Positions 1,953 to 53,586 of a DNA stretch of 64,000 nucleotides are shown here, piece after piece. Where the stretch lies: positions 76,931 through 140,930 of the forward strand of contig CAZCHF010000002.1 in assembly GCA_964498325.1 (NCBI GenBank), written 5' to 3'. Source of the DNA: an uncultured Candidatus Kuenenia sp. (GTDB lineage: Bacteria > Planctomycetota > Planctomycetia > Pirellulales > UBA1268). A program made the translations under genes and the position numbers. The notes below the pieces were generated by a model. The model saw only the letters and a program-made list of their open reading frames with translations. It did no database searches and had not been told where the DNA came from. Position 1 is the stretch's first letter. Each line of letters starts with the position of its first letter.

Positions 1953-3197
1953 ATGATTCGTCAGGCTGATCCAGATGTCGTCGTCATCGGTGGCGGACCC
2001 TCCGGAGCCACCGTTGCCACGCTTGTGGCCGAGCGCGGCCATTCGGTCACGTTGTTTGAGCGGGATCGGTTTCCGCGTTATCACGTGGGCGAGTCGCTCA
2101 TCCCCGAAACGTTCTGGGTTCTCGATCGTCTCGGCATCTTGCCAACCATGCGCGAGAGCCAGTTTGTCGAAAAGCACAGCGTTCAATTCGTGTCGGACGA
2201 AGGGAAGCTTTCGGCCCCCTTTTACTTCGCCGATTACAAGGACCACGAAAGTTCGCGCACCTGGCAGGTGACTCGTCAGGACTTCGATCAGCTCCTGCTC
2301 GACAATGCCCGATCGAAGGGAGTGCATGTCGAGGAAGGAGTGCGGGTTCTCGAAGTCTTGCTGAACGAGTCCGGCCGAGCGACCGGTGTACGGGTGGTCG
2401 ACGAATCAGGGATCGAACGAACGGTTCGGTGCAAGGTGGTCGTCGATGCCGCGGGCCAAAGTGGGCTGCTGCTCGATCGGCTGAAACTGCGGGCGTGGGA
2501 TCCCGACCTCAAGAAGGCGGCCATCTGGACCTACTGGAAGGGCGCGGCACGGGAATGCGGTCGTGATGCCGGTGCCACCCTCGTGCTCCAGACCGAAGGC
2601 AAGAAAGGCTGGTTTTGGTACATCCCCCTCGCGGACGACATCACGAGCATCGGCGTCGTGGCTGATTTCTCGCACCTCTTCCAGGGGCGCGAGTCGAAAG
2701 ATCCTGAGGTGATCTACGCGGAAGAAGTCGCGCGGTGCCCGGGACTCATCCCGCGGCTCGAGGGAGCGACGCGTGTCGAGCCGTTTCGGGTGGCGAAGGA
2801 ATATTCCTACCGATCCAAACAGGTCGCCGGTGACGGCTGGGTACTCGTGGGGGACGCGCTTGGGTTTCTCGATCCGCTCTACTCGTCGGGCATTCTGCTC
2901 GCGCTCAAGAGCGGTGCTCTCGCCGCGGATGCCATCGCCGACTCCCTGGATCAGGGAGACACGTCGGCTGCCGCGCTTGGCGCCTGGGGGCCTGGCTATC
3001 TCACCGGCATGGACCGAATGAAAAAGCTCGTGCGGGCGTTTTACGACGGCCTGAACTTCGGCAATGTGGTGCGGCGGCACGCCGAAGCCAAGTCGTTGAT
3101 TACCGACATCCTCATCGGCGACCTCTTCACCGACCGCATCGACACGCTCTGGCCGCTGTTGGCCGAGCCAGAGGGCGTGTCCGCGGCCCAGTCGTGA
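1953..3197 (+). CDS. FAD-dependent oxidoreductase, flavin-dependent-halogenase-like
   Basis: N-terminal GxGxxG (VVVIGGGPSGA), FPRYHVGESLIPE, and a W-x-W-x-I-P motif (GWFWYIPL, about nt 2607-2630). Confidence 0.8.
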   Translation: MIRQADPDVVVIGGGPSGATVATLVAERGHSVTLFERDRFPRYHVGESLIPETFWVLDRLGILPTMRESQFVEKHSVQFVSDEGKLSAPFYFADYKDHESSRTWQVTRQDFDQLLLDNARSKGVHVEEGVRVLEVLLNESGRATGVRVVDESGIERTVRCKVVVDAAGQSGLLLDRLKLRAWDPDLKKAAIWTYWKGAARECGRDAGATLVLQTEGKKGWFWYIPLADDITSIGVVADFSHLFQGRESKDPEVIYAEEVARCPGLIPRLEGATRVEPFRVAKEYSYRSKQVAGDGWVLVGDALGFLDPLYSSGILLALKSGALAADAIADSLDQGDTSAAALGAWGPGYLTGMDRMKKLVRAFYDGLNFGNVVRRHAEAKSLITDILIGDLFTDRIDTLWPLLAEPEGVSAAQS

Positions 3198-3237
3198 CCG
3201 TTCGCAACCCGTGGAACAACACCACGCGTGCCACATG

Positions 3238-3263
3238 GGAAATGGCCATGGATGGCATTTTCC
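3238..3263. terminator. Hairpin between convergent genes (possible bidirectional terminator)
   Basis: GGAAATGGCCA-tgga-TGGCATTTTCC: ~11-bp stem with one bulge, T-run on the + side. Lies between the stops at 3197 (+) and 3272 (-). Confidence 0.35.
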
Positions 3264-3271
3264 ATCGACAT

Positions 3272-4675
3272 TCAGCCCTTCCATTCGACGCCGAGGATCG
3301 TGATGTCGTCGAGCGGGCCGTTCGGTTGGCACCAGGTCTCGACCTCGTGCAGGAGCCCGGCCACGCTCGGGGCCAGCGGACCGCCACGGGTGCCGTCGAG
3401 GAGCGCCGCCATGCGCTCTTCACCGTAAGCCTCGCGGTCTTTGTCCATCGCTTCGGGCACGCCGTCGGAATACAAGTAAATCCGATCACCGGGCAGGAGC
3501 GTGAGTGAACGCTGTTCGTATTCGACTTCCGGCACGAACGCGATCGGAAACCCCTCCGCTCCATGAAACTCCGGCGGCCCCCCCGCTACGGGAATCCGCA
3601 CGAGGGCCGGATGGCCTCCTGAGACGTAGTCGAGCCGACCGCTTGGCACGTGGAGCACGCCGTAAAGAATCGTGAAGTAAAGCCCGGAGAACTCATCGGC
3701 TTGAAAGAGCCGATTGAGCTGCGTGGCGACCTCAGCCGGCGACGCCACAACCACGCGGCCATCCTGCCCTGGCCGAACGAGAATCGACGAGTCGGACACC
3801 TTCGGCGTCAGAAAGCGACCGACCGTCACCGCCATGAGTGATGATGGAACGCCGTGGCCGCTCACATCGACGACGAAAAGTCCGACGCGCTCCTCATCGA
3901 GTTGAAAAATGTTCAGAAAATCGCCGGCAAGCCCCTGGCAGGGGACGTACCGCCAGGCGATGTCAAGCGACGAAAGCGTCACGTCGTCGGCAGGAAGCAA
4001 CGATCGCTGCACCTTCGCCGCCGCCTCGAGATCGCGAACCATGTGGGCGTTGATCCGCGAGATCTCGGCGTTGAGCGTGACCAATTCCTTGTTGGATCGC
4101 TCGAGGCTGTCGCGGGCCACCGACAGCTCCTGGTTGGCGACCACAAGCTCCTTGTTTTTGGTGACGGCGTTTTCGAACGTCGAGACGAGGAGATTCAGGA
4201 CTTGCTGACGGCCAGCCTTGACCTTGAAGGTTTGCCCAGCGAGCGAGACCTCGAGCGTCGTGCTTGCCGACTCGTCTTCGTCGCCGAGGGGCGTGGCGAG
4301 CAGGGCGGCCATGCGGCCGAGAAGATAGTCAGGCTCGTAGGGCTTCGTGACGTAGTTGTCGGCGCCCGCGTCGAGACCGCGGATGATGTCGACGGGATCG
4401 GAGAGCGTGGAGAGCAGGATGAACGGCACGCTTCGAAGCGCCGGATCCGACTTCACCGCCTTGCAAAAATCGTAGCCCGTCGCCACCGGCATCTCGATAT
4501 CCGAGATGATGATGTCCGGCCGGCGCTCGCGGGCCATGTCGAGGGCGAGGGAACCGTTTTCCGCCCAGCGGACGGCGTGACCGGCGTCCGTAAGCCGCTT
4601 CTGCAGGATCTTCGCCTGCATCCGGCTGTCCTCAGCTATGAGGACATCGACGCCGCCGATCGCCGGGTCAGCCAC
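3272..4675 (-). CDS. Response-regulator receiver domain fused to PP2C/SpoIIE-type serine phosphatase (RsbU-like)
   Basis: N-terminal REC domain (DVLIAEDS...PDIIISDIEMP...K), a coiled-coil linker, and a C-terminal SpoIIE-like region (GDFLNIF...VVDVSGHGVPSSL...LYSDGVPEA...DDITILGV). Confidence 0.85.
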   Translation of the reverse strand: MADPAIGGVDVLIAEDSRMQAKILQKRLTDAGHAVRWAENGSLALDMARERRPDIIISDIEMPVATGYDFCKAVKSDPALRSVPFILLSTLSDPVDIIRGLDAGADNYVTKPYEPDYLLGRMAALLATPLGDEDESASTTLEVSLAGQTFKVKAGRQQVLNLLVSTFENAVTKNKELVVANQELSVARDSLERSNKELVTLNAEISRINAHMVRDLEAAAKVQRSLLPADDVTLSSLDIAWRYVPCQGLAGDFLNIFQLDEERVGLFVVDVSGHGVPSSLMAVTVGRFLTPKVSDSSILVRPGQDGRVVVASPAEVATQLNRLFQADEFSGLYFTILYGVLHVPSGRLDYVSGGHPALVRIPVAGGPPEFHGAEGFPIAFVPEVEYEQRSLTLLPGDRIYLYSDGVPEAMDKDREAYGEERMAALLDGTRGGPLAPSVAGLLHEVETWCQPNGPLDDITILGVEWKG

Positions 4676-5328: not shown

Positions 5329-6534
5329 ATGACCATTCGTTTGGGCCACGTCATGTTGCTGGTCGGTCTATTGGTGCTCCGGGGCGCCACGACCGTTCGC
5401 GCCGACAATGAGGCCGACGTCGAACTCCCAGAGATTGAAATTTTGAGCCCGGGCGACGCCACTCCCGAAGAAGTGGAGCCCGGGGAAGAACTGTCGGACG
5501 ATACGGCCTGGTCGGACGGACTGAGTCCTGATGGAGCGGTGTTCGCGGCGCCAAAGGCTTGCCGCCACGGGTGTCGGAAGCGGTGCCAGTGCTCGTCGGT
5601 GACAACGTTCGACCTGCTTTTTCTCGAGCGCACCAACGATACCAACGGCCAACCGGTCGTCCTCTACGGTCCTCTCGCGCCCACTCCGGGCAACACTGTC
5701 ATGACCACGCGGGGCATGGTGTTCGAAACGACGCCGGGCATGCGGCTTTTCCATTCCAAACGCGACTGTCACGGTGACGGTTGGGAGATCGGCTACTGGG
5801 GCGTTTTTGGGATGGACGCCGCGAACAGGGCCGACTTCGGCGACGGCCTGGCCGTTCCCGGCGATCTTGGTCTGGCTGTCCCCGGCTGGCAGACGGCCAA
5901 TGCAATCCAGGCCGGTTACACGTCCTCCGTAAACGTCGCCGAGATGAACTTCTTCTTGGCCGACTCGTGGTCGACCACGACCTGCAACCCCAAGGATCCG
6001 TGCCACCGGGTCCATCGCACGACCACCGTTGACTGGCTCGGCGGCCTCTTCTGGGCCGGCGTCGACGAGACGGCTTTCCTGCGCGTCACGACCGATCCGA
6101 GCGTGCCGACGACCGCCTACCGCACGGCAGCCAGCTCGAACATGCTTGGTGTGCAAACGGGCGTCCGTGCCCGCCGGCAGTGGGACGTCTGGGCACTCGA
6201 AGGATTCCTGAAGGTGGGCCTCGGCGGCTCCTGGCTCCACCAGTCGACAAGCCCGATCACGTCCGGCCTCGTGCCAGGTTTTGAATACCGAATGGGACGC
6301 GAGGCCGAAACCACCAACACCGGCTTCCTCTCGAGCATGAACGTCACGGCCGTACGGTCCTTCGGCGAGCACTGGTCGCTTCGTGTCGGTTACAACCTCG
6401 CCTGGCTCAGCGGCCTGGCCCTCGCCCCGAACCAGTTCGACTTCACCGATACCGCCACGAGCGGCACGGGCATCAACGGTGCCGGCAGCTTGTTCTTGTT
6501 TGGTGCGAACTTGGGTTTGGAACGCACGTGGTAG
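5329..6534 (+). CDS. Outer-membrane beta-barrel protein (BBP7-like)
   Basis: Signal peptide (LLVGLLVLRGATTVRA), alternating beta-strand-like segments, C-terminal ...GANLGLERTW with a terminal aromatic residue. GGGGAGAG lies ahead of the ATG. Confidence 0.65.
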   Translation: MTIRLGHVMLLVGLLVLRGATTVRADNEADVELPEIEILSPGDATPEEVEPGEELSDDTAWSDGLSPDGAVFAAPKACRHGCRKRCQCSSVTTFDLLFLERTNDTNGQPVVLYGPLAPTPGNTVMTTRGMVFETTPGMRLFHSKRDCHGDGWEIGYWGVFGMDAANRADFGDGLAVPGDLGLAVPGWQTANAIQAGYTSSVNVAEMNFFLADSWSTTTCNPKDPCHRVHRTTTVDWLGGLFWAGVDETAFLRVTTDPSVPTTAYRTAASSNMLGVQTGVRARRQWDVWALEGFLKVGLGGSWLHQSTSPITSGLVPGFEYRMGREAETTNTGFLSSMNVTAVRSFGEHWSLRVGYNLAWLSGLALAPNQFDFTDTATSGTGINGAGSLFLFGANLGLERTW

Positions 6535-6908: not shown

Positions 6909-6994
6909 TTCAGCGTGACAGCGTCACAAAACAGCGAGGGCCGGGTGATTGCTCACCCGGCCCTCGGTTTGAAACGCGTCAGAAGAAATGAAGC

Positions 6995-8269
6995 TTACTT
7001 GCAGCGACGGCAGCCACGCTTCTTGCAGCAGCTCGACTCGCAGCAGTCGCAGCAATCCGACTTGCAGCAGCAGTCAGCCTTGCAGCAGGGCTCCTCGACG
7101 GCCACGCACACGCACTTGGTGACGGCCACTTCCTTCTCGACCTGGACCGGAACGCAGACGTTGTAGGACACCTTCTTCTCTTCCGAGACGCACTCGTAGG
7201 AGCAAACGGTGTACTTCTCTTCCTTCTGCGTCGGGACCATCACCGTGTAGGTGACTTCCTTGGCGACCGTCTCGGGCACGCACTTCGTGACCGTGTACTC
7301 GCGGGTGCGAGTCTCGGGCTTGCACTTGGTGACCGTGACCTTGCGGGTCTTCTGCTCCGGCACGCACTTGGTGACGGTGTACTCACGGGTCCGCTCTTCT
7401 GGCACGCACTTCGTGACACAGTAGGTGCGGGTCCGCTCCTCTTCCTTGCACTTGGTGACACAGACCTTGCGGGTCCGCTCTTCGTCCCGGCACTTCGTGA
7501 CGGTGTAGGTGCAAGGAACTTCTTCGGTGACGCACTCGTAGGTCGTGCAGGTCACTTCCTTGTCCTCACACGTCGGAACCCAGACCTTCTTGCAGCAGGT
7601 CTTCGGAGGGCATGGGCAGCCGCAGGCGTCGGTCCCACCGGGGATCTCGACCATCTGCGTCTCCCAGTGACCACCACGGACCTTGACGGTCTTCTTGGTC
7701 TCGACCGGAACGCGCTTGGTCACCTTCCGGGTCGCCTTCACCTCTTCGGTGTAGGGAACCTTCACGGTGTACTTCTGCTCCACCTCTTCGGTGTAGGGAA
7801 CCATCACCTTGTAGGTGCAGGTCTTCTCTTCCTTCACCGGCACCATGACGGTGTAGGTGCAGGTCTTCTTCTCTTGGACCGGAACCATCACCGTGTAGGT
7901 CTGCTCGACCTCTTCGGTGTAAGGAACCATGACCGTGTACTCACAGGTCTTGGTCTCCGTGACGTTCTTGTTGACCGTGCAGTTGACGGTCTTCGTCTTC
8001 GTCTCGGGGACACAGACCGTGACCATCCGGGTCTTCTCTTCGGTCTTCGGAACACGCTTCATGACCGTGACGGTCTTCTCGCGGGTTTCCGTCTTGTATT
8101 CCGTGCACATGACCTTCTTCATCTCGGTCACGAGCTCTTTTTTGTAAACCGTGCGGGTGCCACAGCAGGCACTCGCATCACCGCAGGCGCAGTCGCCGGC
8201 CCATGTGCTTGAACACATGGCAACGACGGCGACGGCCGGCATCACGCAAGCCATAAGTTTTCGAATCAC
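6995..8269 (-). CDS. Secreted cysteine-rich YTV-repeat protein
   Basis: The track ORF begins with TTG at 8281. GGAGG at 8279-8275 followed by GTG at 8269 gives VIRKLMACVMPAVAVVAMCSSTWAG, a plausible signal peptide. The body is 14-aa repeats (TYTVMVPxxEExxx; TKCVPExxTRxYTV). The tail is CCKADCCCKSDCCDCCESSCCKKRGCRRCK. The start codon is uncertain. Confidence 0.8.
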   Translation of the reverse strand: MIRKLMACVMPAVAVVAMCSSTWAGDCACGDASACCGTRTVYKKELVTEMKKVMCTEYKTETREKTVTVMKRVPKTEEKTRMVTVCVPETKTKTVNCTVNKNVTETKTCEYTVMVPYTEEVEQTYTVMVPVQEKKTCTYTVMVPVKEEKTCTYKVMVPYTEEVEQKYTVKVPYTEEVKATRKVTKRVPVETKKTVKVRGGHWETQMVEIPGGTDACGCPCPPKTCCKKVWVPTCEDKEVTCTTYECVTEEVPCTYTVTKCRDEERTRKVCVTKCKEEERTRTYCVTKCVPEERTREYTVTKCVPEQKTRKVTVTKCKPETRTREYTVTKCVPETVAKEVTYTVMVPTQKEEKYTVCSYECVSEEKKVSYNVCVPVQVEKEVAVTKCVCVAVEEPCCKADCCCKSDCCDCCESSCCKKRGCRRCK

Positions 8270-8636
8270 GCCAACCTCCAAAAGTAAAGAACGAACGGGA
8301 AGGACCGAGCAGGTTTGCCTCGGGAACTCGCCTGACGCCGGCCGGTCGAAGGGACCAGATTTCTGCGACGACCGAACGCTCGGCCGCCTGATAAGATAGA
8401 TAGGTTACGTCGACAAATCCGGCGTTCAAGGGTCGGGCCAGGAAAATCCGGATGACTTTGACGGCCTGTACCAGGGTTTACCCTGAAGGCGGGGTCGTGG
8501 GCTCCAACATTGGGCCAAAACCTGGCGATTTCCCCGTCGCAAGGGTTGCGACCCACCTCTCGCGGACGCCATACTTTAAATCAGTGGGGAGTGTGTTTTG
8601 TTCGTGAGGGACGGGCACCCGGGGGAGGATTCTGCG

Positions 8637-9074
8637 ATGGACACCGTAGCTGATCTCTTGGCGGCGAAGCCGCGTCACATCGTTTCCACATCGCCAACGG
8701 CCACGGTCCGGCAGGCCACCTGGCTCATGAACGAGCATTCAATCGGGTCGCTCCTGGTGACGGCATCGGATCGCCTCGTCGGCATTTTCACGGAAAGGGA
8801 CGTGCTTCGGCGCGTGGTGGCCGAAGGACGATCGCCCGAGTCCACACCGGTGAGTGATGTCATGACCCGCGAGGTCGTTTGCTGCTCTCCCGACACCTCG
8901 ATCGAAGAAGTGGCCGATCTCATGCGGCGGCGTCGCATTCGCCATGTGCCGATTCTCAATCCCGACGAGTCGGTCGTGGGCGTCGTGTCGATCGGCGACA
9001 TCAACGCCCACCGCTTTGCGACATGCGCGACCGAACTGGTTCAGGTGCAGGCTTACATCATGGGCCGGGCCTGA
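8637..9074 (+). CDS. CBS-pair domain protein
   Basis: ATG at 8637 preceded by GGGGGAGGA. Two CBS-like halves (...IGSLLVTASDRLVGIFTERDVLRRV... and ...IRHVPILNPDESVVGVVSIGDI...). Confidence 0.8.
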   Translation: MDTVADLLAAKPRHIVSTSPTATVRQATWLMNEHSIGSLLVTASDRLVGIFTERDVLRRVVAEGRSPESTPVSDVMTREVVCCSPDTSIEEVADLMRRRRIRHVPILNPDESVVGVVSIGDINAHRFATCATELVQVQAYIMGRA

Positions 9075-9270
9075 CCGTCTGCCGGAGGCGAGTGACCCGT
9101 TCCAGCGAGGCTGTGCGGCCTTGGCGCCGTCGTGTAGGATCGTGGCTCTCCAGGTGCTTCGCCCGCGGAGGCCGGGTGGGGCATCTCGAGCGGTGACGCG
9201 CCAGTCGCCGTCGTCATTCCAACGGAGGGTTCGTTCTGTGCTGCATGATGCTGCTGGCGGTTGCCGCGTG

Positions 9271-10464
9271 ATGGTTTTGCTGCTCACCTGTGTCGCGATC
9301 ACAAGTGGTTGCTCCGACAGCCAAATCTCGCGACGGCCGAAGTTCGATGCCGTCGCCGCCGAGCCTGAACTTCCCGCCGCAGCGGCCCGTGGCCGAAGGC
9401 CCGTCCGGCTCGTCCCCAACGTGACAAGGCCAGCCGAGCCGTTTCGTGTCGGCAAGGCTGCCGTGCCGCCAGCGCGAGTCGCGCATGCCGGCGACGCGAT
9501 GCCCGCCATGATCGCGACCTCCGCAGGAAGCATGCTGCGACTGACTGCCGCTGCCGAAGAGCCGAGGCAGCTCGACACCACGGACACGGCCCAAGCTCCG
9601 TGCATTGCGGAGATCCGCGACATGTTCACGGGCTATCTCCGGGCCTTCAATCGGCATGATGCGGTCGCTGCCGCGGCCTGCTGGGCTCCGGCGGCCGAAA
9701 ACGTGAACCTCGACACCGGCGAAGTGACGAAAGGTCGCGAGGCCGTGCAGGCGGTGTTTACCGCCCTCTTCGATGTCGATCCTGCCGCCACGATCGACAT
9801 CGATGTCGCGTCCATCCGACCCCTCCACGAGGATGTCGCGGTGATCGACGGCGTGTCGCGTGTGGCGTACGAAGACGGAGACGTCATCGCCAGCCGGTTC
9901 TCCGCCGTGGCCGTGCGGCATGATGACGCCTGGCAACTTGCGAGCGTTCGCGAGGCGGGGGCGACCCATGCTGCGGCCAGCCCGAAACCACTTGACGACC
10001 TCGCCTGGCTCGTAGGCTCCTGGGAAAACGTCGGCCCAGGTGTCATCGCCGGTAGCCGCTGCGATTGGTGGGCCGGCGGAACCTACTTGGTCCGCCGTCA
10101 CTCCATCACGCCCGACAGTGGTTCTGGCCAGCCCCCGAAGCCGACTGACACGGCGATCCCGGCCCTCCTGCCGGCCGTCGGATCCGCATCGCACGAGGTC
10201 TGCGAGATCATCGCCTGGGACCCGGAACGCCAGGAGATCCGGTCCTGGATTTTTGGGAGCGACGGCCGCTTTGCTGAAGCCACGTGGCACCGTGACGGCG
10301 ATGCCTGGAGGATCGACGTGGAAGGACGCGGCCTCGACACGGGCCGCAGCGCGACCTGCACGATCCAGAGGGGCGGCGCCGATGCCATCGAGATCCGCTG
10401 TGAGGGCACGGGCCTCGAAGGCCTCGTGCCCCCATCGTGCGGATTTTCAAGAACAGGATCGTAG
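9271..10464 (+). CDS. Lipoprotein with SnoaL/NTF2-like (DUF4440-type) domains
   Basis: Start trimmed to MVLLLTCVAITSGC (lipobox-like ITSGC). The track's N-terminal extension overlaps the CBS gene. NTF2-like segment FTGYLRAFNRHDAVAAAACWAP...AVAVRHDDAWQLASV. Confidence 0.6.
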   Translation: MVLLLTCVAITSGCSDSQISRRPKFDAVAAEPELPAAAARGRRPVRLVPNVTRPAEPFRVGKAAVPPARVAHAGDAMPAMIATSAGSMLRLTAAAEEPRQLDTTDTAQAPCIAEIRDMFTGYLRAFNRHDAVAAAACWAPAAENVNLDTGEVTKGREAVQAVFTALFDVDPAATIDIDVASIRPLHEDVAVIDGVSRVAYEDGDVIASRFSAVAVRHDDAWQLASVREAGATHAAASPKPLDDLAWLVGSWENVGPGVIAGSRCDWWAGGTYLVRRHSITPDSGSGQPPKPTDTAIPALLPAVGSASHEVCEIIAWDPERQEIRSWIFGSDGRFAEATWHRDGDAWRIDVEGRGLDTGRSATCTIQRGGADAIEIRCEGTGLEGLVPPSCGFSRTGS

Positions 10465-10468
10465 GCGG

Positions 10469-11524
10469 CTACTTTTTCGTGGTCGGCTGGGCGGCCATCT
10501 GCTGCCGCTTCACGAAGAACACCTGCGGGTCGTCGATGACCCACGGCGTGCTCCACGTTTTGCCGTCGTCCTGCGTGCAGACGTTGAAGAAGAACGTCTT
10601 CACCCATTCGGTGCGGTAGGCATACGGATACTGCGAGGTCATGTGGTCCTCCGGCGTGAGGTCATCGACGCCGGGGCTCGCGAAGTAGTGGACGACGCCA
10701 TCGGGCGTGAACGACATGCCGAGCGTCCACCAGCCGAGTTGATCGATCCGCTTGCCCATGATCTCGCCGCCGTTGCGACCGCTCCGGATGCGGATGTAGG
10801 CGCCATCTTCCTTGAACTTGGGATCGCTGCTGCTCTCGAAACAGATGAACATGCCCGGCCAATATTCCTCGACGCCATACTTGCCTTTGTCGGGATGATC
10901 TTCGCCCGTGATGATCGCATGGGTGAAGCAGCCGGCACGAAACCCGAAGCTCGGCCCCGATCGCTTTTCCCACTGCTCATACGGCGGCAGGTACACCCGC
11001 ACGACGAAACTCGGGCTGTCACCCACCGACATGCCGCGGCCCCCGGTGAACTTGCCGAGGTTGTAGATCAGGTCGTCCTGCTGCATGGTGTAGGTGGTGC
11101 GGCCAGGAATGCCGGCGTGGAGCGTGGCCATGAGCATGCCATGGGTGCTGCCCTCGAGACCGGGAGCGGGGAGTTCCACCCGCTTGACGACGTCGGGGAT
11201 GCCCCGCTTCGGGCCCTCGAACCACCGGCCGTTGGTGCTCTTGGCGAGCGGCCCGCGCATCCGCTTGTCTTGTTCCTCGGAGCTCTTTGGGTGGTTGTAG
11301 TTCATCTTCCACTTCTCGTCCTCGAAGTCGTCGATGACGTTCTTGACGAGGGTGCCGGTGCCGGGGACGAGCGGCGGACGGTCGGGCACTGGCCCGCCGA
11401 CTTTGCCGGAAGGCTGATTCGCTCGCGTGAGCCCACCAAAGAAGCGGCCGGGCGCTGCATCGGCGATCGCAAGCCACCCACATGCCACGAGAACACCTGC
11501 CCCAACTGCACAACGAGCGAGCAT
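10469..11524 (-). CDS. Secreted hypothetical protein
   Basis: Start trimmed to MLARCAVGAGVLVACGWLAIADA (signal peptide). Long ORF with non-degenerate composition. No family recognised. Confidence 0.55.
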   Translation of the reverse strand: MLARCAVGAGVLVACGWLAIADAAPGRFFGGLTRANQPSGKVGGPVPDRPPLVPGTGTLVKNVIDDFEDEKWKMNYNHPKSSEEQDKRMRGPLAKSTNGRWFEGPKRGIPDVVKRVELPAPGLEGSTHGMLMATLHAGIPGRTTYTMQQDDLIYNLGKFTGGRGMSVGDSPSFVVRVYLPPYEQWEKRSGPSFGFRAGCFTHAIITGEDHPDKGKYGVEEYWPGMFICFESSSDPKFKEDGAYIRIRSGRNGGEIMGKRIDQLGWWTLGMSFTPDGVVHYFASPGVDDLTPEDHMTSQYPYAYRTEWVKTFFFNVCTQDDGKTWSTPWVIDDPQVFFVKRQQMAAQPTTKK

Positions 11525-11835
11525 GTCGCGTCTCCGTCTGTTCCGACACCCGACGAACAGAGGGCACCAGACCCTCCGACCTGTCCGTCGGTATCGACTC
11601 TGCCGATCAATCGTCACCACGGGGGACTGTTTCGGCCGTTCTTCTGCCCTGGCTTGTGCGGCCTGCCCCTGAACCGGGGGTTCCCAAATCTCCGCCGCCG
11701 CCGTTGCTTCTCCAAATTCCGCGCCCCCGAAAAATCTCGGAGGAATCCCCTGGCATAGACCGGAGAAAAACGTCACATACCCGTTCGGCGAGTGGACATG
11801 CTTCCGTGTGCTCGTCGACCCAGGACTCCCGTCAC

Positions 11836-12881: not shown

Positions 12882-15446
12882 CTACCAGCGACCCGTGGCG
12901 ATGTCGCGGGTCCAGCCGCTTCCCGATGAGTCGCTCGAGGGTGGTGGGGTGACCGTACGTGATGATGATCCGCTCGACCGCCATGGGCTTGGACCTGAGA
13001 GCGGCCCGGTCGGAAGGTTGATGACCCAGGGGCCGGCGCCACGGCTCGTGCGCTGAAACGCTTCTTCCATCTGCTGCCGGCGCTGCGCCGCCTCGCGCCG
13101 CTGCCGACGACGCTCCGCTTCCGCGGTGGCCGTCGCATAGGCGAGCCGCGCCAGTTGTGAGGCCTCGGCCGCGGCGCGGATGGCGTCTTCATATCGCTGC
13201 TGGTCGAGCAGCCGTTCGGCCGAGTCGCGGGCAGCCTTGGCAGGGAGAATGTCGACCCGCACACCCTCCGCATACCAGGCTCGGGCTCGACGGATCGCGG
13301 CATCTGCCTCGTCGAGGTCAGCCCGCGCCTGCCGGGACAGTCGCTCGTCTTCCGCGGCCAGTTCCTCGCCGCGAGCCACGGCCGTATCGACCGCATCGAT
13401 GACGCGGGCGATCTGCCGTGGGTCGGGGCGAGGCTCGCGCATCAGGTCGCTGGCAACCTCCACAAGCCGTTCGGCCTCCCGGCGCCGCTCAGCGGCCCGT
13501 GCCCGGTCCGTCCGTTGCCGATCGAGGGCGATGGCTAGCGCCCCAGTCGCGGTCCGGCTCGCCTGCAAGCGCGCGGGCAACGACGCCGCAAGGCGATCGA
13601 GGTCCTGACGGCGCTCGGCGACCGCCGCGACAAGCGACTCGGACCACGCTGCCTGACGTTCCGCTTCTTCAAGCTCCGCCACGGCGCGAAAGTAGTGTTG
13701 GGTCTCCGGCGCAGCCGCGACGGTGGCCTCGCCGAGCAACTGCCGCGCATGGGTCAGCGCCTCATCGGCCTCGAGCAGGTTGTCAGCGACGTCGCTCCAG
13801 GCCGTGTGGGCATACCGCTCACCGAGATGCAGGCGGTCCGTCTCGGCCCGCGACCGCGCGGCGATGAGCTTGTCGAGCCGGGCTGCCAACCCGGGCATGA
13901 GCTGCTCGGCCCGGGTGCGCGCTGCGGCGACGCTTTCGAGCAGCTTCGCCGCAGCGGCGACCGCCTCGTCGGCAAGACCCAAACGTTGCCTCACATGCTC
14001 GAGGTCGGCCGAGTCGAGGAGGCGAGCTGCGAGGTCGGCTTCGGCGACGCCCTGGTCGAGCAAGGTTTCCGGATCAGCGCCAGGCTCCACAAGCAACCAG
14101 CCCTCCGCCCGCCGCGCCGAGGCCCGGGCCCGCACGTCGTTGATGCGTTCCACCAGATCCCGTCGGCGATCATCCGCCGCCTCGATCGCTTCCACAGCTT
14201 CGATCATCGAATCGATCTTGGTTCGGGCTGCTTCGAGTCGACCGCGTGCGGCGACGGGATCGGGCTCGACTTCCGCCGATGCAAGCGTCTGGGCCCTCCT
14301 CGCCTCGGCGACCGTCGCGTCGAAAGGAGCCGACGATCGCCCCCGATGGGAGAGGCTGTCGAGGCGCAGGGAAGCGGATGCGAGATCCGCATCGAGCGCC
14401 TCGGCCAAGGCGCGTGCCGTTTCGTGGGCACTTTCCAGGGCATCGAGCGGCGACTGGCATGCCCCTCGCACCTCGTCGAGCGGCGGCCTCGCCTCGGCCG
14501 TGGCGAGCATCGCGATCACGTCGTCGCTCGCCTCGGTGCCCAAAAGCCACTCCTGGTCCAGCCGCTGCTGTGCCTTGTCCCACGTCTCCATGAGCGACAG
14601 CCACCGTTCGCGATACCGCCGAATGGCATCCTGCACCGCGTCGTAGGCATCGCGAGTCATGCCGCGCATCGGCGTGCGAAAATCGGGGTCTGAATGAGGC
14701 AGCATTCGATGCCGCTCCTGGGAGGCATCGAGGAGATCGGAAAGGGCGACCACATCCCCTTTGAAGCGTGCGAGTGCCTCGCGGGCCTTGTTCATCCGTG
14801 CCACCGCCCGCCACCGCACGAGTGCGAACGCGGCGAGGATGCCAGTGGCCGCAATCGCACCCACCGCAGTGGGGAGCGTGCGCGTCCGAAAGATTCTGGC
14901 GTGCTCGGCTCGGCGGATGCGATCTGCTATCCCGCCGGTCAGTGCCTGGTCGATTGCAGCGACGAGCGAGGCAAGCCCATCGGCGTAGCGCATGTCCTTG
15001 GCCTTCGGGACAAACGCCTTCGCGATGACCGTGCGTTCAATCGCCCGCATGTCGAGGCCGGCGGCGCTTGCGAGGGACGGCGGGATGTCGATCGCCACCG
15101 AACGGTCACCGAGATCGACGACGACCGTGATGTCGGCCCCGGGGTCAAAACGGGTGGCATCACGAGCCTCCCACCAGCGGTCGACGATTCGTGGAAGCAG
15201 CGCGGCAGCGCCTCCCGTCGCCCCGTCAGACTTCGTCACCACCGCGCGGTAGCGGCGACCGCTGGCAGCTTTCGCCGCGTCGATGGCCTTGCGGGCAATG
15301 TCAAAATCGTCCTTGATGCCAGGCTCGACGAAGACCGTCGTCGCGCCGTCGACTGCCGGGAGAAACTCTTCGGCCGGTGCTGGGACGGCGGAGCCCAGAG
15401 CCAGGGCGATCAGCAGAAGCCACCCGGAGCTCGTTCGTTCGTGCAT
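12882..15446 (-). CDS. TPM-domain membrane protein with very long Ala/Arg/Glu-rich helical C-terminal region
   Basis: Start set at MHERTSSGWLLLIALALGSAVPAPA (signal peptide; the alternative ATG is at 15473). TPM/TLP18.3-like domain (about nt 14900-15360). One TM helix (about 14811-14879). About 600 aa of helical low-complexity sequence, then a Ser/Gly/Pro tail ending in W. Confidence 0.7.
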   Translation of the reverse strand: MHERTSSGWLLLIALALGSAVPAPAEEFLPAVDGATTVFVEPGIKDDFDIARKAIDAAKAASGRRYRAVVTKSDGATGGAAALLPRIVDRWWEARDATRFDPGADITVVVDLGDRSVAIDIPPSLASAAGLDMRAIERTVIAKAFVPKAKDMRYADGLASLVAAIDQALTGGIADRIRRAEHARIFRTRTLPTAVGAIAATGILAAFALVRWRAVARMNKAREALARFKGDVVALSDLLDASQERHRMLPHSDPDFRTPMRGMTRDAYDAVQDAIRRYRERWLSLMETWDKAQQRLDQEWLLGTEASDDVIAMLATAEARPPLDEVRGACQSPLDALESAHETARALAEALDADLASASLRLDSLSHRGRSSAPFDATVAEARRAQTLASAEVEPDPVAARGRLEAARTKIDSMIEAVEAIEAADDRRRDLVERINDVRARASARRAEGWLLVEPGADPETLLDQGVAEADLAARLLDSADLEHVRQRLGLADEAVAAAAKLLESVAAARTRAEQLMPGLAARLDKLIAARSRAETDRLHLGERYAHTAWSDVADNLLEADEALTHARQLLGEATVAAAPETQHYFRAVAELEEAERQAAWSESLVAAVAERRQDLDRLAASLPARLQASRTATGALAIALDRQRTDRARAAERRREAERLVEVASDLMREPRPDPRQIARVIDAVDTAVARGEELAAEDERLSRQARADLDEADAAIRRARAWYAEGVRVDILPAKAARDSAERLLDQQRYEDAIRAAAEASQLARLAYATATAEAERRRQRREAAQRRQQMEEAFQRTSRGAGPWVINLPTGPLSGPSPWRSSGSSSRTVTPPPSSDSSGSGWTRDIATGRW

Positions 15447-15453
15447 GGCAGCG

Positions 15454-15759
15454 TTATGGTTCGGTTCCATCATTCAAGATGCCTTCACTCGAGACAAGAA
15501 TTCCGAGTTCGCTCGCTGCTGCTTCCGCGAGTGCCCAGGTAGTGGGGTCGCCGGCCGAGATGATGGCGACCGCACCAAGGGCCTTCGCTTCATTCACGAT
15601 CGCTTCCACCGTCGACGGTCCGGCGAGGCGCACCCGGTAGAGACGGTGGGCCGCCTGGAAGCGACGGGCCCAGTTCGGTCCGCCGGAGGCGATCGCACCG
15701 TTGTCGGCCACGACGAGGATCGGTCCTGGTGGCAGATGCTCGAGCGACGTGGCGTTCAC
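15454..15759 (-). CDS. Small hypothetical protein (101 aa)
   Basis: GTG start overlaps the upstream stop (GTGA). High third-position GC. The opposite-strand ORF is Arg-rich junk. No family recognised. Confidence 0.45.
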   Translation of the reverse strand: MNATSLEHLPPGPILVVADNGAIASGGPNWARRFQAAHRLYRVRLAGPSTVEAIVNEAKALGAVAIISAGDPTTWALAEAAASELGILVSSEGILNDGTEP

Positions 15760-27035: not shown

Positions 27036-30000
27036 ATGGCTCTCGCGCGGCGACTTCAGAAGCTCCTGGGGCATCATTCGCGCAGGCGCCGGATGCGGGC
27101 ATTTCGGCCGACGATCGAGCGGCTTGAGGGTCGCCTGACGTTGGCTGGCGACAGTTTCGTCGAGCCGCCGGTCATCACGAGCAACCCCATCACGCGTGTC
27201 CTGACGGCAAAACTGACCATGGCGGTCACGCCTGCCAAGGTCGGCGATTCCACGGTGACCAACGCCTGGACCTACAACGGCAGTTACGTCGGCCCCACGC
27301 TCAAAGCCCAGCCGGGCGACCTCCTTGATCTGGAAGTGGTCAACCGCCTGCCCAGCGGTCAGATCACGAATTTCCACACCCACGGACTGCACGTGTCGCC
27401 GCTCGGCAATGGAGACAACGTCCTTTTGGAGATCCAGCCGGGCGCGTCGAACCGGTACCAGATCAGGATCCCAGCAGACCACCCCAGCGGCCTTTACTGG
27501 TACCACCCGCACCACCACACCCGGGTGTACGACCAGATCAGCAAGGGGCTGTCCGGTCTTCTGGTCATCGGTGATGCCGACGGCGGGGCGACCCAGCTCG
27601 ACAGCTACACATCGCACCTGCTCGCGCTCAAAAACGCGCTCGTGACTGGGAGCACGATCCAGATTCCGCCCAGCTCATCCATGCCGAGTAATCCGATCCA
27701 GACGTTCACTGTCAACGGCCAGCTCAACCCGGTCCTCAAGGTGCCGCAAGGCCAGGGGCAGGTGTTCAACGTGGCCAACATGGGCGCCAACGCCTTTTAC
27801 AGTTTGCAGCTCAACACCGCGGCCGACGGCTCGGGCACGAGCATTCCCCTCATCCTCGTGGGGCAGGATGGCAACCCACTCTATACGGCACGCGCGAACC
27901 CGGGCGGGCCCCTCGGCGCCCTCGGGTTGCCACCCGGCCGCCGCTGGTCGTTCACCTATGACCTGAGTCAGAACACGTCGCTGCTGGAAGCGGGCGACAC
28001 GCTGTATCTCATCGGACTTTCCAACTCCGGCCAGTCCGGCACGAACCTCTGGGATGTGTGGCCGAACACGTCCACGAAGCCTTCGACAACTGTTGACGTC
28101 GGCACGCTGAACGCCGGCATCAATGCCAAGCAAACGCGAATCTCCGTCCGGAGCAGTAGTCAGCTACCGATCGTCAATGGATTCACCATCACGATTGGTG
28201 GCGAGAAGATGCGGGTCACCGCCGGCGCGGGCACGAGTACCGCGGGCGTCACCACCTGGACCGTGCAACGTGGCGTCGGCGGAACGACGCGAACGAGCCA
28301 CGCGAATGGCGCCATCGTCGCACTGGATCAAGGCTCGACGGGCACGCCCTTGATGACCATCCAGTTCACGTCCCCGGTGGGGCCGTCCGATCCCCCTGTG
28401 CATGCCAATGATCCGTTGACGTATACGAGTGGTCCCACGGCCTTCGAAGACTACGCCGCGCAAACCACGCTCACTGCGGCGATCGATGCGACGCAAACCA
28501 CGATCACCGTGGCGTCCGCCACCGGCTTCCCGACGACGAATGGGTACGGGATCACCATCGGCTCGGAGAACATGCTGGTCACCGGCGGCGCGGGCACGAC
28601 CACTTGGACGGTCACGCGCGGAACAGACGGCAGCACGGCCGCGGCCCAAGCCAATGCGGCTCCCGTGAAGGTGCAGATTGCCGCCTTTCGAAAGGTGGTC
28701 TTCGGCAAGCAGGGGTCGGAAAACATCCTCAATGGCGCCCAGTTCGGCCACAACCCGATCTTCCAACCCAGGCTCGGCACGGTCGAAGAATGGACGCTTC
28801 TGAACCCGACGACGCAGTCGCACCCCTTCCACCTTCACACCAATCCGCAGCAGGTGATTGGGGGCTCGCAGGGACCTGGCCAGCCGAAGAATTATCAGGA
28901 CGTCATCAACGTGCCTTTCGCGAAGGCGACGACGCTCGCGAGCGGGATCAGTGCGTCACAAACGACGATCACCGTCGACCCGGCGACTGCGGGCAATTTT
29001 CCGACGACGTTCCCGTTCACGGTTCTCGTCGGCAACGAATACATGACGGTCACCGCGGCGGCTGCCAACGTTTGGACGGTGACTCGCGGGGCGGAGGGCA
29101 GCACGCCCGCGAGTCACAACCATGGCGATTCGGTCATCCTTCCCGGTAGCGTCACCATTCGGATCAAGTTCACCGACTACCTCGGCACGATCGTCTTTCA
29201 CTGCCACCGCGTCGATCACGAAGACACGGGGATGATGGTGGCGGTCAAGATGATCCCAAACGCGCCGTTGTATGCCATCGGCCATAACCCTGGATACCAC
29301 GCCGTGGTGGATGTCTTTGATTCGATGACCCAAGCCACGAGCACCCAGGTTCCACCTCCCCAAGCCGGGAAGTTCCGGGCCTTTCCTTCCAATACCAGTG
29401 GCGTGAACGTGGCGGTCGGGGATGTCAACGGCGACGGCGTGGATGACATCATCGCCGGCATGGCGAGCCAAGGCTCGCTGGTCAAAGTGATCGACGGCAC
29501 CAAGATGGACCAGGTCGACCCGGTCACGCTCGACATCCTGCCCTCGGCGTTGCTCGGGATGTTCACTCCCTTCGGCCCGAACGTTCGCGGCGTGTTCGTC
29601 GCTGCTGGCGACATCAACAACGACGGCCTTTCCGATGTCATCGTGGGCACTGGCGCCGTCACCCATCCTTCCACGCCGACACTGCTCGTCGTCAATGCGG
29701 CGCAGCTTCCTCAAGGAGGCAGCGTGCCGGCGGGTGCGGTCCTGGCGCGGCGCACGCTATCGGCCATCTACCGTGGTGGCGTGCGCGTGGCGGCTGGCGA
29801 CATCGTCGGCAACGGGCGGACCCAGATCGTCGTCGGTGCAGGCGCAGGAAATCTTCCGCAAGTCCTGGTGTTGAGCCAGAAGTTGAACGTGATCGCGTCG
29901 TTCCTCGCATTCGAGCGGAGATTCCGTGGCGGAGTGTTCGTGGCCACCGGCAATACCAAGGGTTGTGGTTTTGACGACATCATCGTCGGCCAAGGTCCTG

Positions 30001-30323
30001 GCGGCAGTCCGCGCGTCAAGATTTACAGTGACGACCATGCCACGAAGGGGCTGGTGCTGAAGCAGACGCGGAGTTTTCTGGCCTACGCCGCGAGTACCAC
30101 CAGCGGTGTTCGCGTCAGTTCGCGTCGCACCATCCCTTCGTCGCCCACTCCGACCGGCTTCAACAAGAAGACCGTCAGCGGGCCGTATGGCGGCAACTGG
30201 GATGACGTGGTGACGGTGCAGGCAACCGGTCTGGATCACGAAGCCCACTACTTCGATGTCCAGGGTTGTGATGCAGGTCAAAGTCCCTCACCCGGCGGCG
30301 GCGGTGGGCACGGAGGCCACTAA
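27036..30323 (+). CDS. Giant secreted multicopper oxidase with three inserted ~65-aa modules and C-terminal FG-GAP/VCBS-like repeats
   Basis: Four Cu-ligand motifs: HTHGLH, WYHPHHH, HPFHLH, HCHRVDHEDTGMM. Repeat modules at about 28107-28325, 28470-28675 and 28932-29145. GDVNGDGVDDIIAG-type repeats at about 29400-30020. N-terminal RLEGRLTLAG motif. Confidence 0.85.
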   Translation: MALARRLQKLLGHHSRRRRMRAFRPTIERLEGRLTLAGDSFVEPPVITSNPITRVLTAKLTMAVTPAKVGDSTVTNAWTYNGSYVGPTLKAQPGDLLDLEVVNRLPSGQITNFHTHGLHVSPLGNGDNVLLEIQPGASNRYQIRIPADHPSGLYWYHPHHHTRVYDQISKGLSGLLVIGDADGGATQLDSYTSHLLALKNALVTGSTIQIPPSSSMPSNPIQTFTVNGQLNPVLKVPQGQGQVFNVANMGANAFYSLQLNTAADGSGTSIPLILVGQDGNPLYTARANPGGPLGALGLPPGRRWSFTYDLSQNTSLLEAGDTLYLIGLSNSGQSGTNLWDVWPNTSTKPSTTVDVGTLNAGINAKQTRISVRSSSQLPIVNGFTITIGGEKMRVTAGAGTSTAGVTTWTVQRGVGGTTRTSHANGAIVALDQGSTGTPLMTIQFTSPVGPSDPPVHANDPLTYTSGPTAFEDYAAQTTLTAAIDATQTTITVASATGFPTTNGYGITIGSENMLVTGGAGTTTWTVTRGTDGSTAAAQANAAPVKVQIAAFRKVVFGKQGSENILNGAQFGHNPIFQPRLGTVEEWTLLNPTTQSHPFHLHTNPQQVIGGSQGPGQPKNYQDVINVPFAKATTLASGISASQTTITVDPATAGNFPTTFPFTVLVGNEYMTVTAAAANVWTVTRGAEGSTPASHNHGDSVILPGSVTIRIKFTDYLGTIVFHCHRVDHEDTGMMVAVKMIPNAPLYAIGHNPGYHAVVDVFDSMTQATSTQVPPPQAGKFRAFPSNTSGVNVAVGDVNGDGVDDIIAGMASQGSLVKVIDGTKMDQVDPVTLDILPSALLGMFTPFGPNVRGVFVAAGDINNDGLSDVIVGTGAVTHPSTPTLLVVNAAQLPQGGSVPAGAVLARRTLSAIYRGGVRVAAGDIVGNGRTQIVVGAGAGNLPQVLVLSQKLNVIASFLAFERRFRGGVFVATGNTKGCGFDDIIVGQGPGGSPRVKIYSDDHATKGLVLKQTRSFLAYAASTTSGVRVSSRRTIPSSPTPTGFNKKTVSGPYGGNWDDVVTVQATGLDHEAHYFDVQGCDAGQSPSPGGGGGHGGH

Positions 30324-48379: not shown

Positions 48380-49516
48380 TCAGTCCTTCAGTTCTTTGAC
48401 GGCTGACGTTGGAACCCACTCGTCCCACTCCGTCGAGTAGCCGTCGTAGTGAACCTTGTGCATCCCGAACTGGGAAGCAAGGACCGTGCCGCGATACCAC
48501 GTCTTGTCCTTGGGCCACAGCACGTTCACGCGCGTGCCATTGGCAAACGTTGTGACGCGCGGCTTGCGGAGTCGATCTTCGCCGACCCATTCGTTCCACG
48601 TGTCGTCGTAGCCAAGGTAATGGACCTGTGACGAGCCGCCGTCAACGTCGATCACCTGGGCCGGGTACCACGAACCTTTCCACTCGACCTCGACCCGGCG
48701 TCCAAGGCCGTCTTCCGGTTCGCCGTCGGTGTCCGCAATTGCCATGTCCGCGTCAAAATCATCGGTGGCGATGAACATGGCCTTTTGGTGCTCGACGTAG
48801 GCCATCGCTTCTTCGGTGTAGGTCGCGAGCTCGCGAAGCTCTACTTCGCCGTCAGCGTCGGTGTCCACCAAGGGGCTGCCCTGAAATCCGGCGATGAGCG
48901 ACTCGGTGAACGTCCAGTTGCCGGTCGACGAGTTGTGGGAATACGAGCTCGTCAGGCACGCGCATGCTAGGTCGTCGCGATGCTTCGCTGCTTCATCATG
49001 GAGTGCGCCCGAGTGGCAGCAATCCGCCATGAAGATCACCTCGTCGCCACTGAAGCGGTCCAGGACCGTGGAGAATATCTCCTTCACCGGCCAGTGGCTC
49101 GCGTAGCTTTCGCCCGCGTCGTAGTTGGCGAAGTAGGTCTGGCCTGTCTTTCGATCACGGCTGCCGTGGCCGGCGAAATAAACGATGAGAAGATCGCCCT
49201 TGTCGGTGCGGTCGAGTTGGCGCTTGAACCGTTGACGGATCGAGGCGAGTGTCGCTTCTTCGTCGGCGAGAAACACGACGTGATCGTCGGGCACACCGGC
49301 GGCCTCGAGCACCTTGACGAGACGCCGATCCGCGCGATTCGGCATGGCGTCAGGAAACGAGGCATAGATCTCTTCGTGTTCCCACTCGAGAATGCCGACG
49401 GCAAACACCCACGTACGCTCCGGATCCCAGCCGATCTCGGCGTGGGCTGCGGCCGAGAGAAGCACGAACAGGGCGACACTCGAGAACGAAATCCTCCACG
49501 TGACCATACGAGACAT
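48380..49516 (-). CDS. Secreted caspase-fold (peptidase C14-like) protein with two C-terminal Tudor/Agenet-like domains
   Basis: Start trimmed to MSRMVTWRISFSSVALFVLLSAAAHA. His-Cys dyad context YFAGHGS and FMADCCHSG. Two ~45-aa repeats (VEVEWKGSWYPAQVIDVD...VHYLGYDDTWNEWV; VNVLWPKDKTWYRGTVLAS...VHYDGYSTEWDEWV). Confidence 0.75.
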   Translation of the reverse strand: MSRMVTWRISFSSVALFVLLSAAAHAEIGWDPERTWVFAVGILEWEHEEIYASFPDAMPNRADRRLVKVLEAAGVPDDHVVFLADEEATLASIRQRFKRQLDRTDKGDLLIVYFAGHGSRDRKTGQTYFANYDAGESYASHWPVKEIFSTVLDRFSGDEVIFMADCCHSGALHDEAAKHRDDLACACLTSSYSHNSSTGNWTFTESLIAGFQGSPLVDTDADGEVELRELATYTEEAMAYVEHQKAMFIATDDFDADMAIADTDGEPEDGLGRRVEVEWKGSWYPAQVIDVDGGSSQVHYLGYDDTWNEWVGEDRLRKPRVTTFANGTRVNVLWPKDKTWYRGTVLASQFGMHKVHYDGYSTEWDEWVPTSAVKELKD

Positions 49517-49555
49517 GCCCGTTGCCTCCGCGACCAGCACGCTGGGATCGGTGAG

Positions 49556-53396: not shown

Positions 53397-53586
53397 GGCG
53401 TGCCCGGAAAACCATGAAACTACCGCCGTTTCCGGGGACCAGTCAAGGATCAGAAACTGGGTAAGGACCGTTGCGGCGAAACCCGTCCTCCCTGTGGCGG
53501 TGGACAGTTTTCGCCTTGTGGGGGGCGGGGGTCGTCGTCTATTCCTCCGAGGCTTTCGCCGAAAACCTCCTCCCGGCAGCGATCCT

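Follow-up and report, generated by a model that had tools for sequence, protein, structure and literature searches.

Cysteine-rich YTV cell-wall proteins of planctomycetes probably fold as one long β-hairpin with arms of matched length

The makeup and cohesion of the planctomycete protein wall have been debated since the 1980s, and YTV proteins are its signature components; the literature searched offers no proposal for their fold or mechanism. What shape might such a protein take, and how might it hold to its neighbors? The question is raised by a gene at positions 6995..8269 (minus strand) of a 64,000-nucleotide stretch of DNA, hereafter the window, which corresponds to positions 76,931 to 140,930 of contig CAZCHF010000002.1 (assembly GCA_964498325.1, deposited as an uncultured Candidatus Kuenenia sp. 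and placed by GTDB in the Pirellulales). An earlier annotation made from the letters alone, here called the sequence-only reading, described a secreted, Cys-rich YTV-type protein of 424–428 residues built from 14-residue units and ending in a poly-Cys tail, and suggested a disulfide-stapled β-solenoid or a metal-binding fiber. The observation of repeats, Cys content and tail was confirmed, and its interpretation was partly supported. The gene itself is a normal member of its family; the main interest lies in the architecture of the family as a whole, which probably folds as one very long two-stranded β-hairpin, a model resting on two AlphaFold predictions together with independent sequence statistics.

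The assignment to the YTV family was borne out by a hidden Markov model (HMM) search, in which the product matched Pfam YTV (PF07639) over 6 stretches (E value 2e-20; 73 bits against a cutoff of 21); a scan of NCBIfam returned no match for the protein. In a database clustered at 90% identity, 347 homologs were found at E values of 1e-3 or lower, the best being 52% identical, and nearly all of the 120 homologs listed carry PF07639. A profile search against representatives clustered at 50% identity gave 1,791 clusters, 368 of them at E values of 1e-30 or lower. The nearest genomic relatives are from uncultured Pirellulales metagenome-assembled genomes (MAGs), with 77–85% identity and none found above 85%; orthologs from cultured Aeoliella and Botrimarina are about 52–55% identical. 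All informative relatives belong to the Pirellulales, Lacipirellulaceae, Pirellulaceae or other Planctomycetota, with a few MAG labels in disagreement. Cell walls prepared from Rhodopirellula baltica, Gemmata obscuriglobus and Tuwongella immobilis have been reported to contain Cys-rich YTV proteins, whose motif occurs in the Planctomycetia only (PMC12673574). They are major constituents of Gemmata walls isolated by boiling in 10% sodium dodecyl sulfate (SDS) (PMC5287468), and the top hits in Tuwongella wall preparations, where they were found in the SDS fraction only (PMC8567305); in P. limnophila a gene for one YTV protein is essential (PMC10632474). The product of the 6995..8269 locus, which the sequence-only reading had rightly taken for a Cys-rich, β-strand-periodic planctomycete protein, is an ordinary if extreme member of this already known cell-wall family. 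It shares with the others the Pfam YTV match, a signal peptide, a high Cys content and a planctomycete host, and its Cys content of 11.0% (47 Cys, in a 428-residue reading of the frame) compares with a median of 6.95% and a 95th percentile of 11.1% among the top 120 homologs.

The coding sequence, identified from the list of open reading frames (ORFs), the Pfam match and the homologs, runs from a GTG at 8269 to a stop codon at 6995–6997 and specifies 424 residues. An alternative upstream TTG at 8281 would extend the frame to 6995..8281 on the minus strand (428 residues). The GTG appears to be the better candidate for the start, because a GGAGG resembling a Shine-Dalgarno sequence (8275..8279, minus strand) precedes it with a 5-nt spacer and orthologs begin at the same residue (VIRK...). 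All the segments that follow are on the minus strand. Residues 1–24 (MIRKLMACVMPAVAVVAMCSSTWA; 8198..8269) were recognized by inspection as a putative signal peptide, which is kept in orthologs and combines a basic n-region and a hydrophobic core of 15 residues with a TWA cleavage-type end. An N-terminal Cys cluster follows at residues 25–37 (GDCACGDASACCG; 8159..8197); it is of low complexity and includes the DCACGDASACC noted previously, with C27 and C36 conserved in at least 90% of sequences and ortholog indels of up to about 20 residues. The N-arm (residues 38–209; 7643..8158) is followed by a central Cys-rich turn loop (residues 210–222, PGGTDACGCPCPP; 7604..7642), in which conservation of C213 and C216 is 90% or higher; the central cluster DACGCPCPPKTCC of the sequence-only reading is likewise present. 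The C-arm occupies residues 223–393 (7091..7603), and a basic poly-Cys tail occupies residues 394–424 (PCCKADCCCKSDCCDCCESSCCKKRGCRRCK; 6998..7090), which contains 13 Cys, all of them within the last 30 residues. The conserved GHW (W202, nt 7664–7666) lies in the N-arm and the invariant W230 (nt 7580–7582) in the C-arm; in an alignment of 62 sequences G200 never varies and W202 is kept in at least 90%. The same layout, i.e., an N-terminal Cys cluster, repeats, a central GHW...VWVP turn, further repeats and a Cys-rich basic tail, was found in the 61 aligned relatives, and the spacing between the two Trp residues ranges from 23 to 81 residues across the family.

The 14-residue period, which spans both arms (residues 38–209 and 223–393), is strong. 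The fraction of identical residues at a lag of 14 is 0.356, as against 0.104 ± 0.015 in plain shuffles (z = 17) and 0.151 ± 0.016 in shuffles that preserve the alternation of even and odd positions (z = 12.7), the maximum of 5000 such shuffles being 0.215. The unit consensus is YTVMVPYTEE.. in the N-arm and YTVTKCVPEERTR. in the C-arm. At the DNA level, Tandem Repeats Finder (TRF) detected arrays of 42, 84 and 126 bp at 7270–7512 and 7738–7998. The two repeat blocks that had been delimited earlier match in their coordinates (7733–7942 for block 1, within the N-arm, and about 7247–7498 for block 2, within the C-arm), and the units quoted for them are right but for one residue, the opening unit of block 1 being EYTVMVPYTEEVEQ and not one that starts TYTV. 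The 342 residues of the two arms contain just 2 Gly, 4 Asn, 2 Asp and 3 Ser.

The fold was predicted with AlphaFold2 (AF2) for the protein itself, employing the alignment of 62 sequences, and in a second run for homolog P0073; the register was read from DSSP boundaries. The first model comprises a helix at residues 2–19, within the signal peptide, and two strands, E39–209 and E223–393, of 171 residues each, with a mean predicted local distance difference test (pLDDT) value of 72.5. Each arm is predicted as a continuous strand, the C-arm antiparallel to the N-arm and the turn loop forming the gap between them, while the N-terminal cluster and the tail are disordered (pLDDT < 50). The equal length of the strands implies a single hairpin in which the positions of paired residues i and j sum to 432, and this register sets the conserved W202 opposite the invariant W230. 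The homolog P0073 (314 residues) belongs to a different arm-length class and is about 44% identical in the alignment. Its strands, E44–150 and E190–296, are again equal (107 residues each), its register sum of 340 is that of W154 and W186, and confidence is higher, pLDDT reaching 90 or more at 170 residues. In the first model pLDDT dips at residues 111–140 and 291–320, segments that are each other's cross-strand partners; their units are repeated more perfectly than any others, and a slip by one unit is hardest to exclude there. A Foldseek search of the PDB yielded partial matches to long hairpins of toxin stems and phage tail knobs with template modeling (TM) scores of 0.15 or lower, and a sequence-profile search of the PDB gave no match (best E value 0.74).

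The hairpin was then confronted with statistics that draw on sequence only. Arm lengths were measured with four small anchor HMMs placed at the start of the N-arm, GHW, VWVP and the end of the C-arm; these replaced earlier anchors (Cys-cluster boundaries and regular-expression motifs), which gave the right trend with many sequences lost and some mis-anchored. In the protein studied here the N-arm anchors are 154 residues apart, i.e., 11 units of 14, and the matching distance in the C-arm is 148. Arms that are exactly equal, in the sense that they keep this relation, were found in 119 of 133 family members, and 125 agree within ±2 residues (r = 0.979). Among representatives less than 50% identical to one another the match is exact in 53 of 57, compared with a mean of 21% and a maximum of 39% under permutation, and among genome loci in 33 of 34. 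The N-arm distances fall at 98, 112, 126 and so on up to 224, which is 7 to 16 units of 14, and at period 14 the Rayleigh R reaches 0.94 in the N-arm and 0.92 in the C-arm, with values no higher than 0.66 at neighboring periods. Ortholog alignments contain matched indels in the two arms (+28/+28, +42/+42 and +70/+70). It had been suggested that the number of 42-bp repeats might vary among strains; it is constant among close relatives (77–85% identity) and does vary at deeper divergence, in both arms together.

The register, too, can be read from the sequences. In the protein studied here no like-charge pair lies across the strands at i+j = 432, whereas 2–17 such pairs occur at the other 32 registers, and its aromatic-cation pairs peak at the same sum (14 pairs). 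Over 87 relatives the like-charge fraction is lowest (0.010) at the Trp-anchored register, and for 47 of the 87 none of the 61 registers does better on like charge than the Trp-anchored one. The hairpin with its equal, quantized arms was not described in the literature searched; the YTV papers found do not discuss structure, although Hieu 2008 and Mahajan 2020 may describe the repeat layout. The hairpin may already be visible in public AlphaFold DB models of YTV proteins.

If the arms pair in this way, what do the cysteines do? The residues of the ribbon alternate between two faces, one of even-numbered Thr, Glu, Cys, Lys, Pro and Met and the other of odd-numbered Val, Lys, Glu, Tyr and Arg. 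Of the C-arm units in 119 relatives, 45% have Cys at phase 8 and 22% at phase 6, as against 19% of N-arm units with Cys at phase 8, and the mean number of Cys is about 4 per N-arm and 9.4 per C-arm; in our protein the C-arm ladder stands at residues 260, 274, 288, 302, 316 and 330. In the hairpin register each phase-positioned arm Cys lies opposite a Pro of the other arm. Two Cys lie directly opposite one another in only 2 of about 16,000 pairs in the 119 relatives and in none here, and at the diagonal position (offset −2) Cys-Cys pairs are about 20-fold below the expectation from phase occupancies. Cross-strand disulfides within the molecule, i.e., the stapling suggested by the sequence-only reading, are therefore absent at the register predicted here and strongly depleted across the family, and since the Cys almost never face each other, the ladder of the arms is not an intramolecular staple. 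The ladder is real and family-wide, with its thiols apparently kept apart within the molecule. Taken together with the SDS-resistant, cystine-rich walls of the literature, the separation of the thiols points to intermolecular disulfides.

A functional analogy is offered by the chlamydial OmcA and OmcB, from the same Planctomycetes-Verrucomicrobia-Chlamydiae superphylum, which are exported Cys-rich proteins that confer rigidity on the envelope through intermolecular disulfides; they are not known to share sequence or repeat similarity with YTV proteins, or to possess the hairpin or the 14-residue architecture.

On these grounds we consider it likely that the protein is a Sec-exported structural component of the envelope that folds as a single long β-hairpin and is cross-linked into the wall by disulfides at its tips and along its ladder. 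After Sec export and removal of the signal peptide, residues 38–209 would run out and residues 223–393 would run back, with the arms in register, W202 facing W230 and each N-arm unit lying against one C-arm unit. The product would be an extended rod about 55 nm long (171 residues × 0.33 nm) with two solvent-exposed faces, one of Val and Tyr with Lys, Glu and Arg and one of Thr, Glu, Cys, Pro and Met, a composition such as would suit a free-standing single-layer β-sheet. The sheet of this type in Borrelia OspA likewise exposes both faces to solvent, is rich in Val, Thr, Lys and Glu, and is held by cross-strand pairs without a hydrophobic core; it consists of a few short strands between globular domains, whereas in the YTV model the whole protein is made of two strands of about 170 residues. 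The open tip of the rod would bring together the N-terminal cluster and the poly-Cys tail, and the CxxC loop would cap the closed tip, all three being disordered and variable in length. Tips and ladder would form intermolecular disulfides, from rod to rod or to other envelope proteins, to give an SDS-resistant wall, although the clusters at the tips may instead pair with one another, clasping the open end, or with metals. The analysis shows that the protein belongs to the family and is periodic, that arms are equal and quantized, that charge and Cys carry register signals, and what fold is predicted; we infer the rod length, the disulfide networking and the localization of this particular protein.

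Several observations weigh against this reading. Both structures are predictions for monomers with low predicted TM scores (0.26 and 0.32), though low values are expected for a rod, and there is no solved precedent for so long a free two-stranded ribbon, the long hairpins in the PDB all being inside oligomeric barrels. Equal arms would also fit pairing between the N-arm of one molecule and the C-arm of another. About 7–11% of the family break the equal-arm rule, among them L026 (+42), P0104 (+14), P0047 (−14), P0112 and a few others, and both L005 and L010 have an additional 42 residues in the C-arm only, which in L010 amounts to one extra copy of a 126-bp super-repeat. Such members may be evolutionary intermediates or artefacts of assembly, i.e., repeats collapsed in short-read assemblies. 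Because the sequences are phylogenetically related, the counts overstate the number of independent events, though 10 length classes were seen. Finally, cross-linking by Cys cannot be universal in the family, since there is a Cys-poor YTV subfamily (P0006–P0013 and P0017; E values of 1e-60 or better with the protein studied here), in which Cys makes up 1.3–2.3% of residues and the Cys-free C-termini end in ...HSKKAA.

The alternative that survives best is that the hairpin is only a protomer and that the functional wall element is a long β-barrel tube or an extended sheet formed by edge-to-edge association. A free ribbon of 171 residues per strand would leave many edge hydrogen bonds unsatisfied, and the strict two-residue alternation yields two chemically distinct faces. 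The sole structural matches, moreover, are hairpins of oligomeric barrels, namely those of the pore-forming toxins lysenin (5ec5), aerolysin (9fm6), anthrax PA (3j9c), CDTb (6uwr) and iota and of the podovirus tail knobs of phi29 (6qz9) and Andhra (8egr). They resemble the YTV ribbon in being extended, two-stranded and antiparallel with an alternating residue pattern. They differ from it in that they occur only in oligomeric barrels and have a hydrophobic face; the TM scores do not exceed 0.15, the identity is 5–15% and there is no homology. Their strands presumably comprise a few tens of residues, compared with 107–171 in the YTV models. Neither face of the YTV ribbon is hydrophobic (the Val/Tyr face is 42% Lys, Glu and Arg), so that it offers no membrane-facing or buried surface, and the regularly spaced Pro on both arms removes NH donors from the edges. 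The uniformly hydrophobic face and the whole-protomer fold similarity that typify a toxin stem are both absent, and assembly into a tube or sheet is, in our judgment, unlikely.

The poly-Cys tail might suggest a different function altogether. The sequence-only reading called it metallothionein-like, and it could be proposed that the Cys clusters, the tail above all, bind metal in the manner of a metallothionein or of Zn or Fe-S knuckles, the protein sequestering metals or being stabilized by them. The tail is dense in CC and CxxC motifs, the pairs C420/C423 and C213/C216 and the N-terminal pair are conserved, and one homolog (P0050) has been named "ferredoxin" by NCBI, presumably from its Cys pattern. 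A Cys-rich basic tail is indeed a feature of the family: of the top 120 homologs, 67% carry 4 or more Cys among their last 30 residues and 86 carry one among the final three, and in the 62-sequence alignment conservation of C420 and C423 is 90% or higher. The 13 Cys and 6 CC doublets of the present tail, the most Cys-dense seen, compare with maxima of 11 and 5 in homologs. This tail marks the upper extreme of a feature found throughout the family and does not constitute a separate metallothionein module. Orthologs keep the tail boundaries, VAVEVPC and (K/R)RGCRRC(K/R), and between them length and content differ freely, with CGDAGA-type repeats in some orthologs and CC doublets in the closest clade; in the present gene the tail DNA consists of short tandem repeats (TRF periods 24 and 18 at 7025–7088). 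Because the boundaries are kept while the intervening sequence is hypervariable, the tail is conserved in kind and fast-evolving in detail, and the N-terminal cluster behaves likewise. Tail length, Cys number (4–13) and spacing change even among close orthologs, unlike the conserved Cys spacing of metallothioneins, and variability this extreme argues against a defined metal site. Furthermore, the protein would be exported to an oxidizing compartment, no Pfam or NCBIfam metal domain was matched, and the literature ties the family to SDS-resistant walls. We therefore think metal binding by the clusters improbable as an explanation of the protein, a shade more so than a tube; it is not exclusive of the cross-linked hairpin and would be compatible alongside it.

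The β-solenoid of the sequence-only reading, with one 14-residue coil per repeat and an internal staple of Cys, is very improbable, for although the 14-residue periodicity is exact, Cys recurs at one unit phase (45% of C-arm units) and insect antifreeze proteins are short disulfide-bonded solenoids with 12-residue coils, both AF2 models give two continuous strands and no coils, the arms, with 2 Gly, 4 Asn and 2 Asp, hold almost none of the turn-forming residues that one coil per unit would need, the N-arm units carry little Cys, a family Cys content ranging from 1.3% to 12.8% leaves no conserved Cys core, and a solenoid offers no rationale for the conserved central Trp/Trp turn or for arms that match in 119 of 133 members.

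Returning to the hairpin, the equal-arm rule quantized in units of 14 residues amounts to a concrete and falsifiable structural model, with the implications that rod length should scale with unit number, that every N-arm residue has a specific predicted C-arm partner and that the arm Cys should be free for intermolecular bonds. It also poses an evolutionary puzzle, namely how two separate repeat arrays keep a matched copy number. A broader proposal, which we advance tentatively and hold at slightly under an even chance, is that the YTV wall proteins represent a new fold class, i.e., a free-standing β-hairpin with 100–230 residues per strand, whose length changes in quanta of one unit per arm (7–16), is kept by matched indels in arrays about 600 bp apart, and which presents unpaired Cys at fixed phases and at both tips as points of cross-linking. 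If this were true, these would be the longest two-stranded β-ribbons known, and its members would serve the wall as molecular rulers or struts, defining its mesh or thickness.

Some further observations concern individual family members. Two YTV paralogs of differing arm length were found in one genome in two cases, L011 and L014 (MAG CAZPEM01) and L009 and L021 (MAG DHLZ01), with arm lengths of 154/148 and 140/134 that correspond to 11 and 10 units, so that rods of two lengths may be made in a single cell. The loci with unequal arms are at 3084–4562 (L005), 7761–9227 (L010) and 8004–9614 (L026). Two homologs appear as fusions, P0036 (744 residues, with 11 Cys in its tail) to an Fpg/Nei glycosylase and P0026 to PII, which are probably gene-calling run-ons and not real. 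Orthologs with 60–81% identity lie on contigs labelled uncultured Candidatus Kuenenia or Chitinophagaceae (L002, L011, L012, L014 and L019), and homolog P0062 is named as coming from a Calditrichaeota MAG; L002 and L012 have synteny of the planctomycete type (CBS, SnoaL, orf10469 and PDZ). The Kuenenia, Chitinophagaceae and Calditrichaeota labels look like cases of mis-binning.

With respect to its genomic context, the YTV gene (G+C content of 0.84 at third codon positions) looks monocistronic, since a hairpin resembling an intrinsic terminator (6935..6966, minus strand; 14-bp stem with 11 G-C pairs, 4-nt loop and T-rich tail) begins 29 nt past its stop codon. Short terminator hits are found in similar number in shuffled sequence, but the 14-bp stem downstream of the gene is unusually long. 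No second YTV gene was found in the window. The neighbors encode a Trp-halogenase-like flavoprotein, a response-regulator PP2C phosphatase, a convergent BBP7-like barrel, a CBS-pair protein, a SnoaL-like protein and a PDZ protein. Their synteny is confined to close relatives and gone in Aeoliella and Botrimarina, and was therefore treated as shared descent and not as functional evidence. A functional link of the YTV gene, as operon or as partner, to the BBP7-like barrel, the CBS protein or the response-regulator phosphatase was rejected, as synteny is lost beyond close relatives and the YTV gene has its own Shine-Dalgarno sequence and terminator. The BBP7-like product (5329–6534, plus strand), a 401-residue protein with a signal peptide, is a putative planctomycete β-barrel porin with a borderline score (24.4 bits against a cutoff of 26). 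It has a Cys/basic patch of its own (CRHGCRKRCQC), and synteny of its gene extends to L001, L003, L004 and L025 and, less strongly, to L015, L016 and L019. Two ORFs without a Pfam hit are syntenic in many loci, one of 435 residues (10469–11776, minus strand; 61–83% identity across relatives) and one of 863 residues (12882–15473, minus strand; 49–65%).

Elsewhere the window carries the planctomycete-specific PSCyt/PSD and BBP7 domains, and its remaining content is typically planctomycete. A protein of 1,095 residues combines multicopper-oxidase domains with FG-GAP repeats (27036–30323, plus strand), and one of 386 residues has a caspase domain (Peptidase_C14) followed by Tudor-knot, Agenet and chromo-like domains (48380–49540, minus strand), an unusual combination in a bacterium. 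An Omp85/BamA homolog with several POTRA domains (53365–56670, plus strand) is unusually long (1,101 residues) and is consistent with an outer membrane of the Gram-negative type in this organism.

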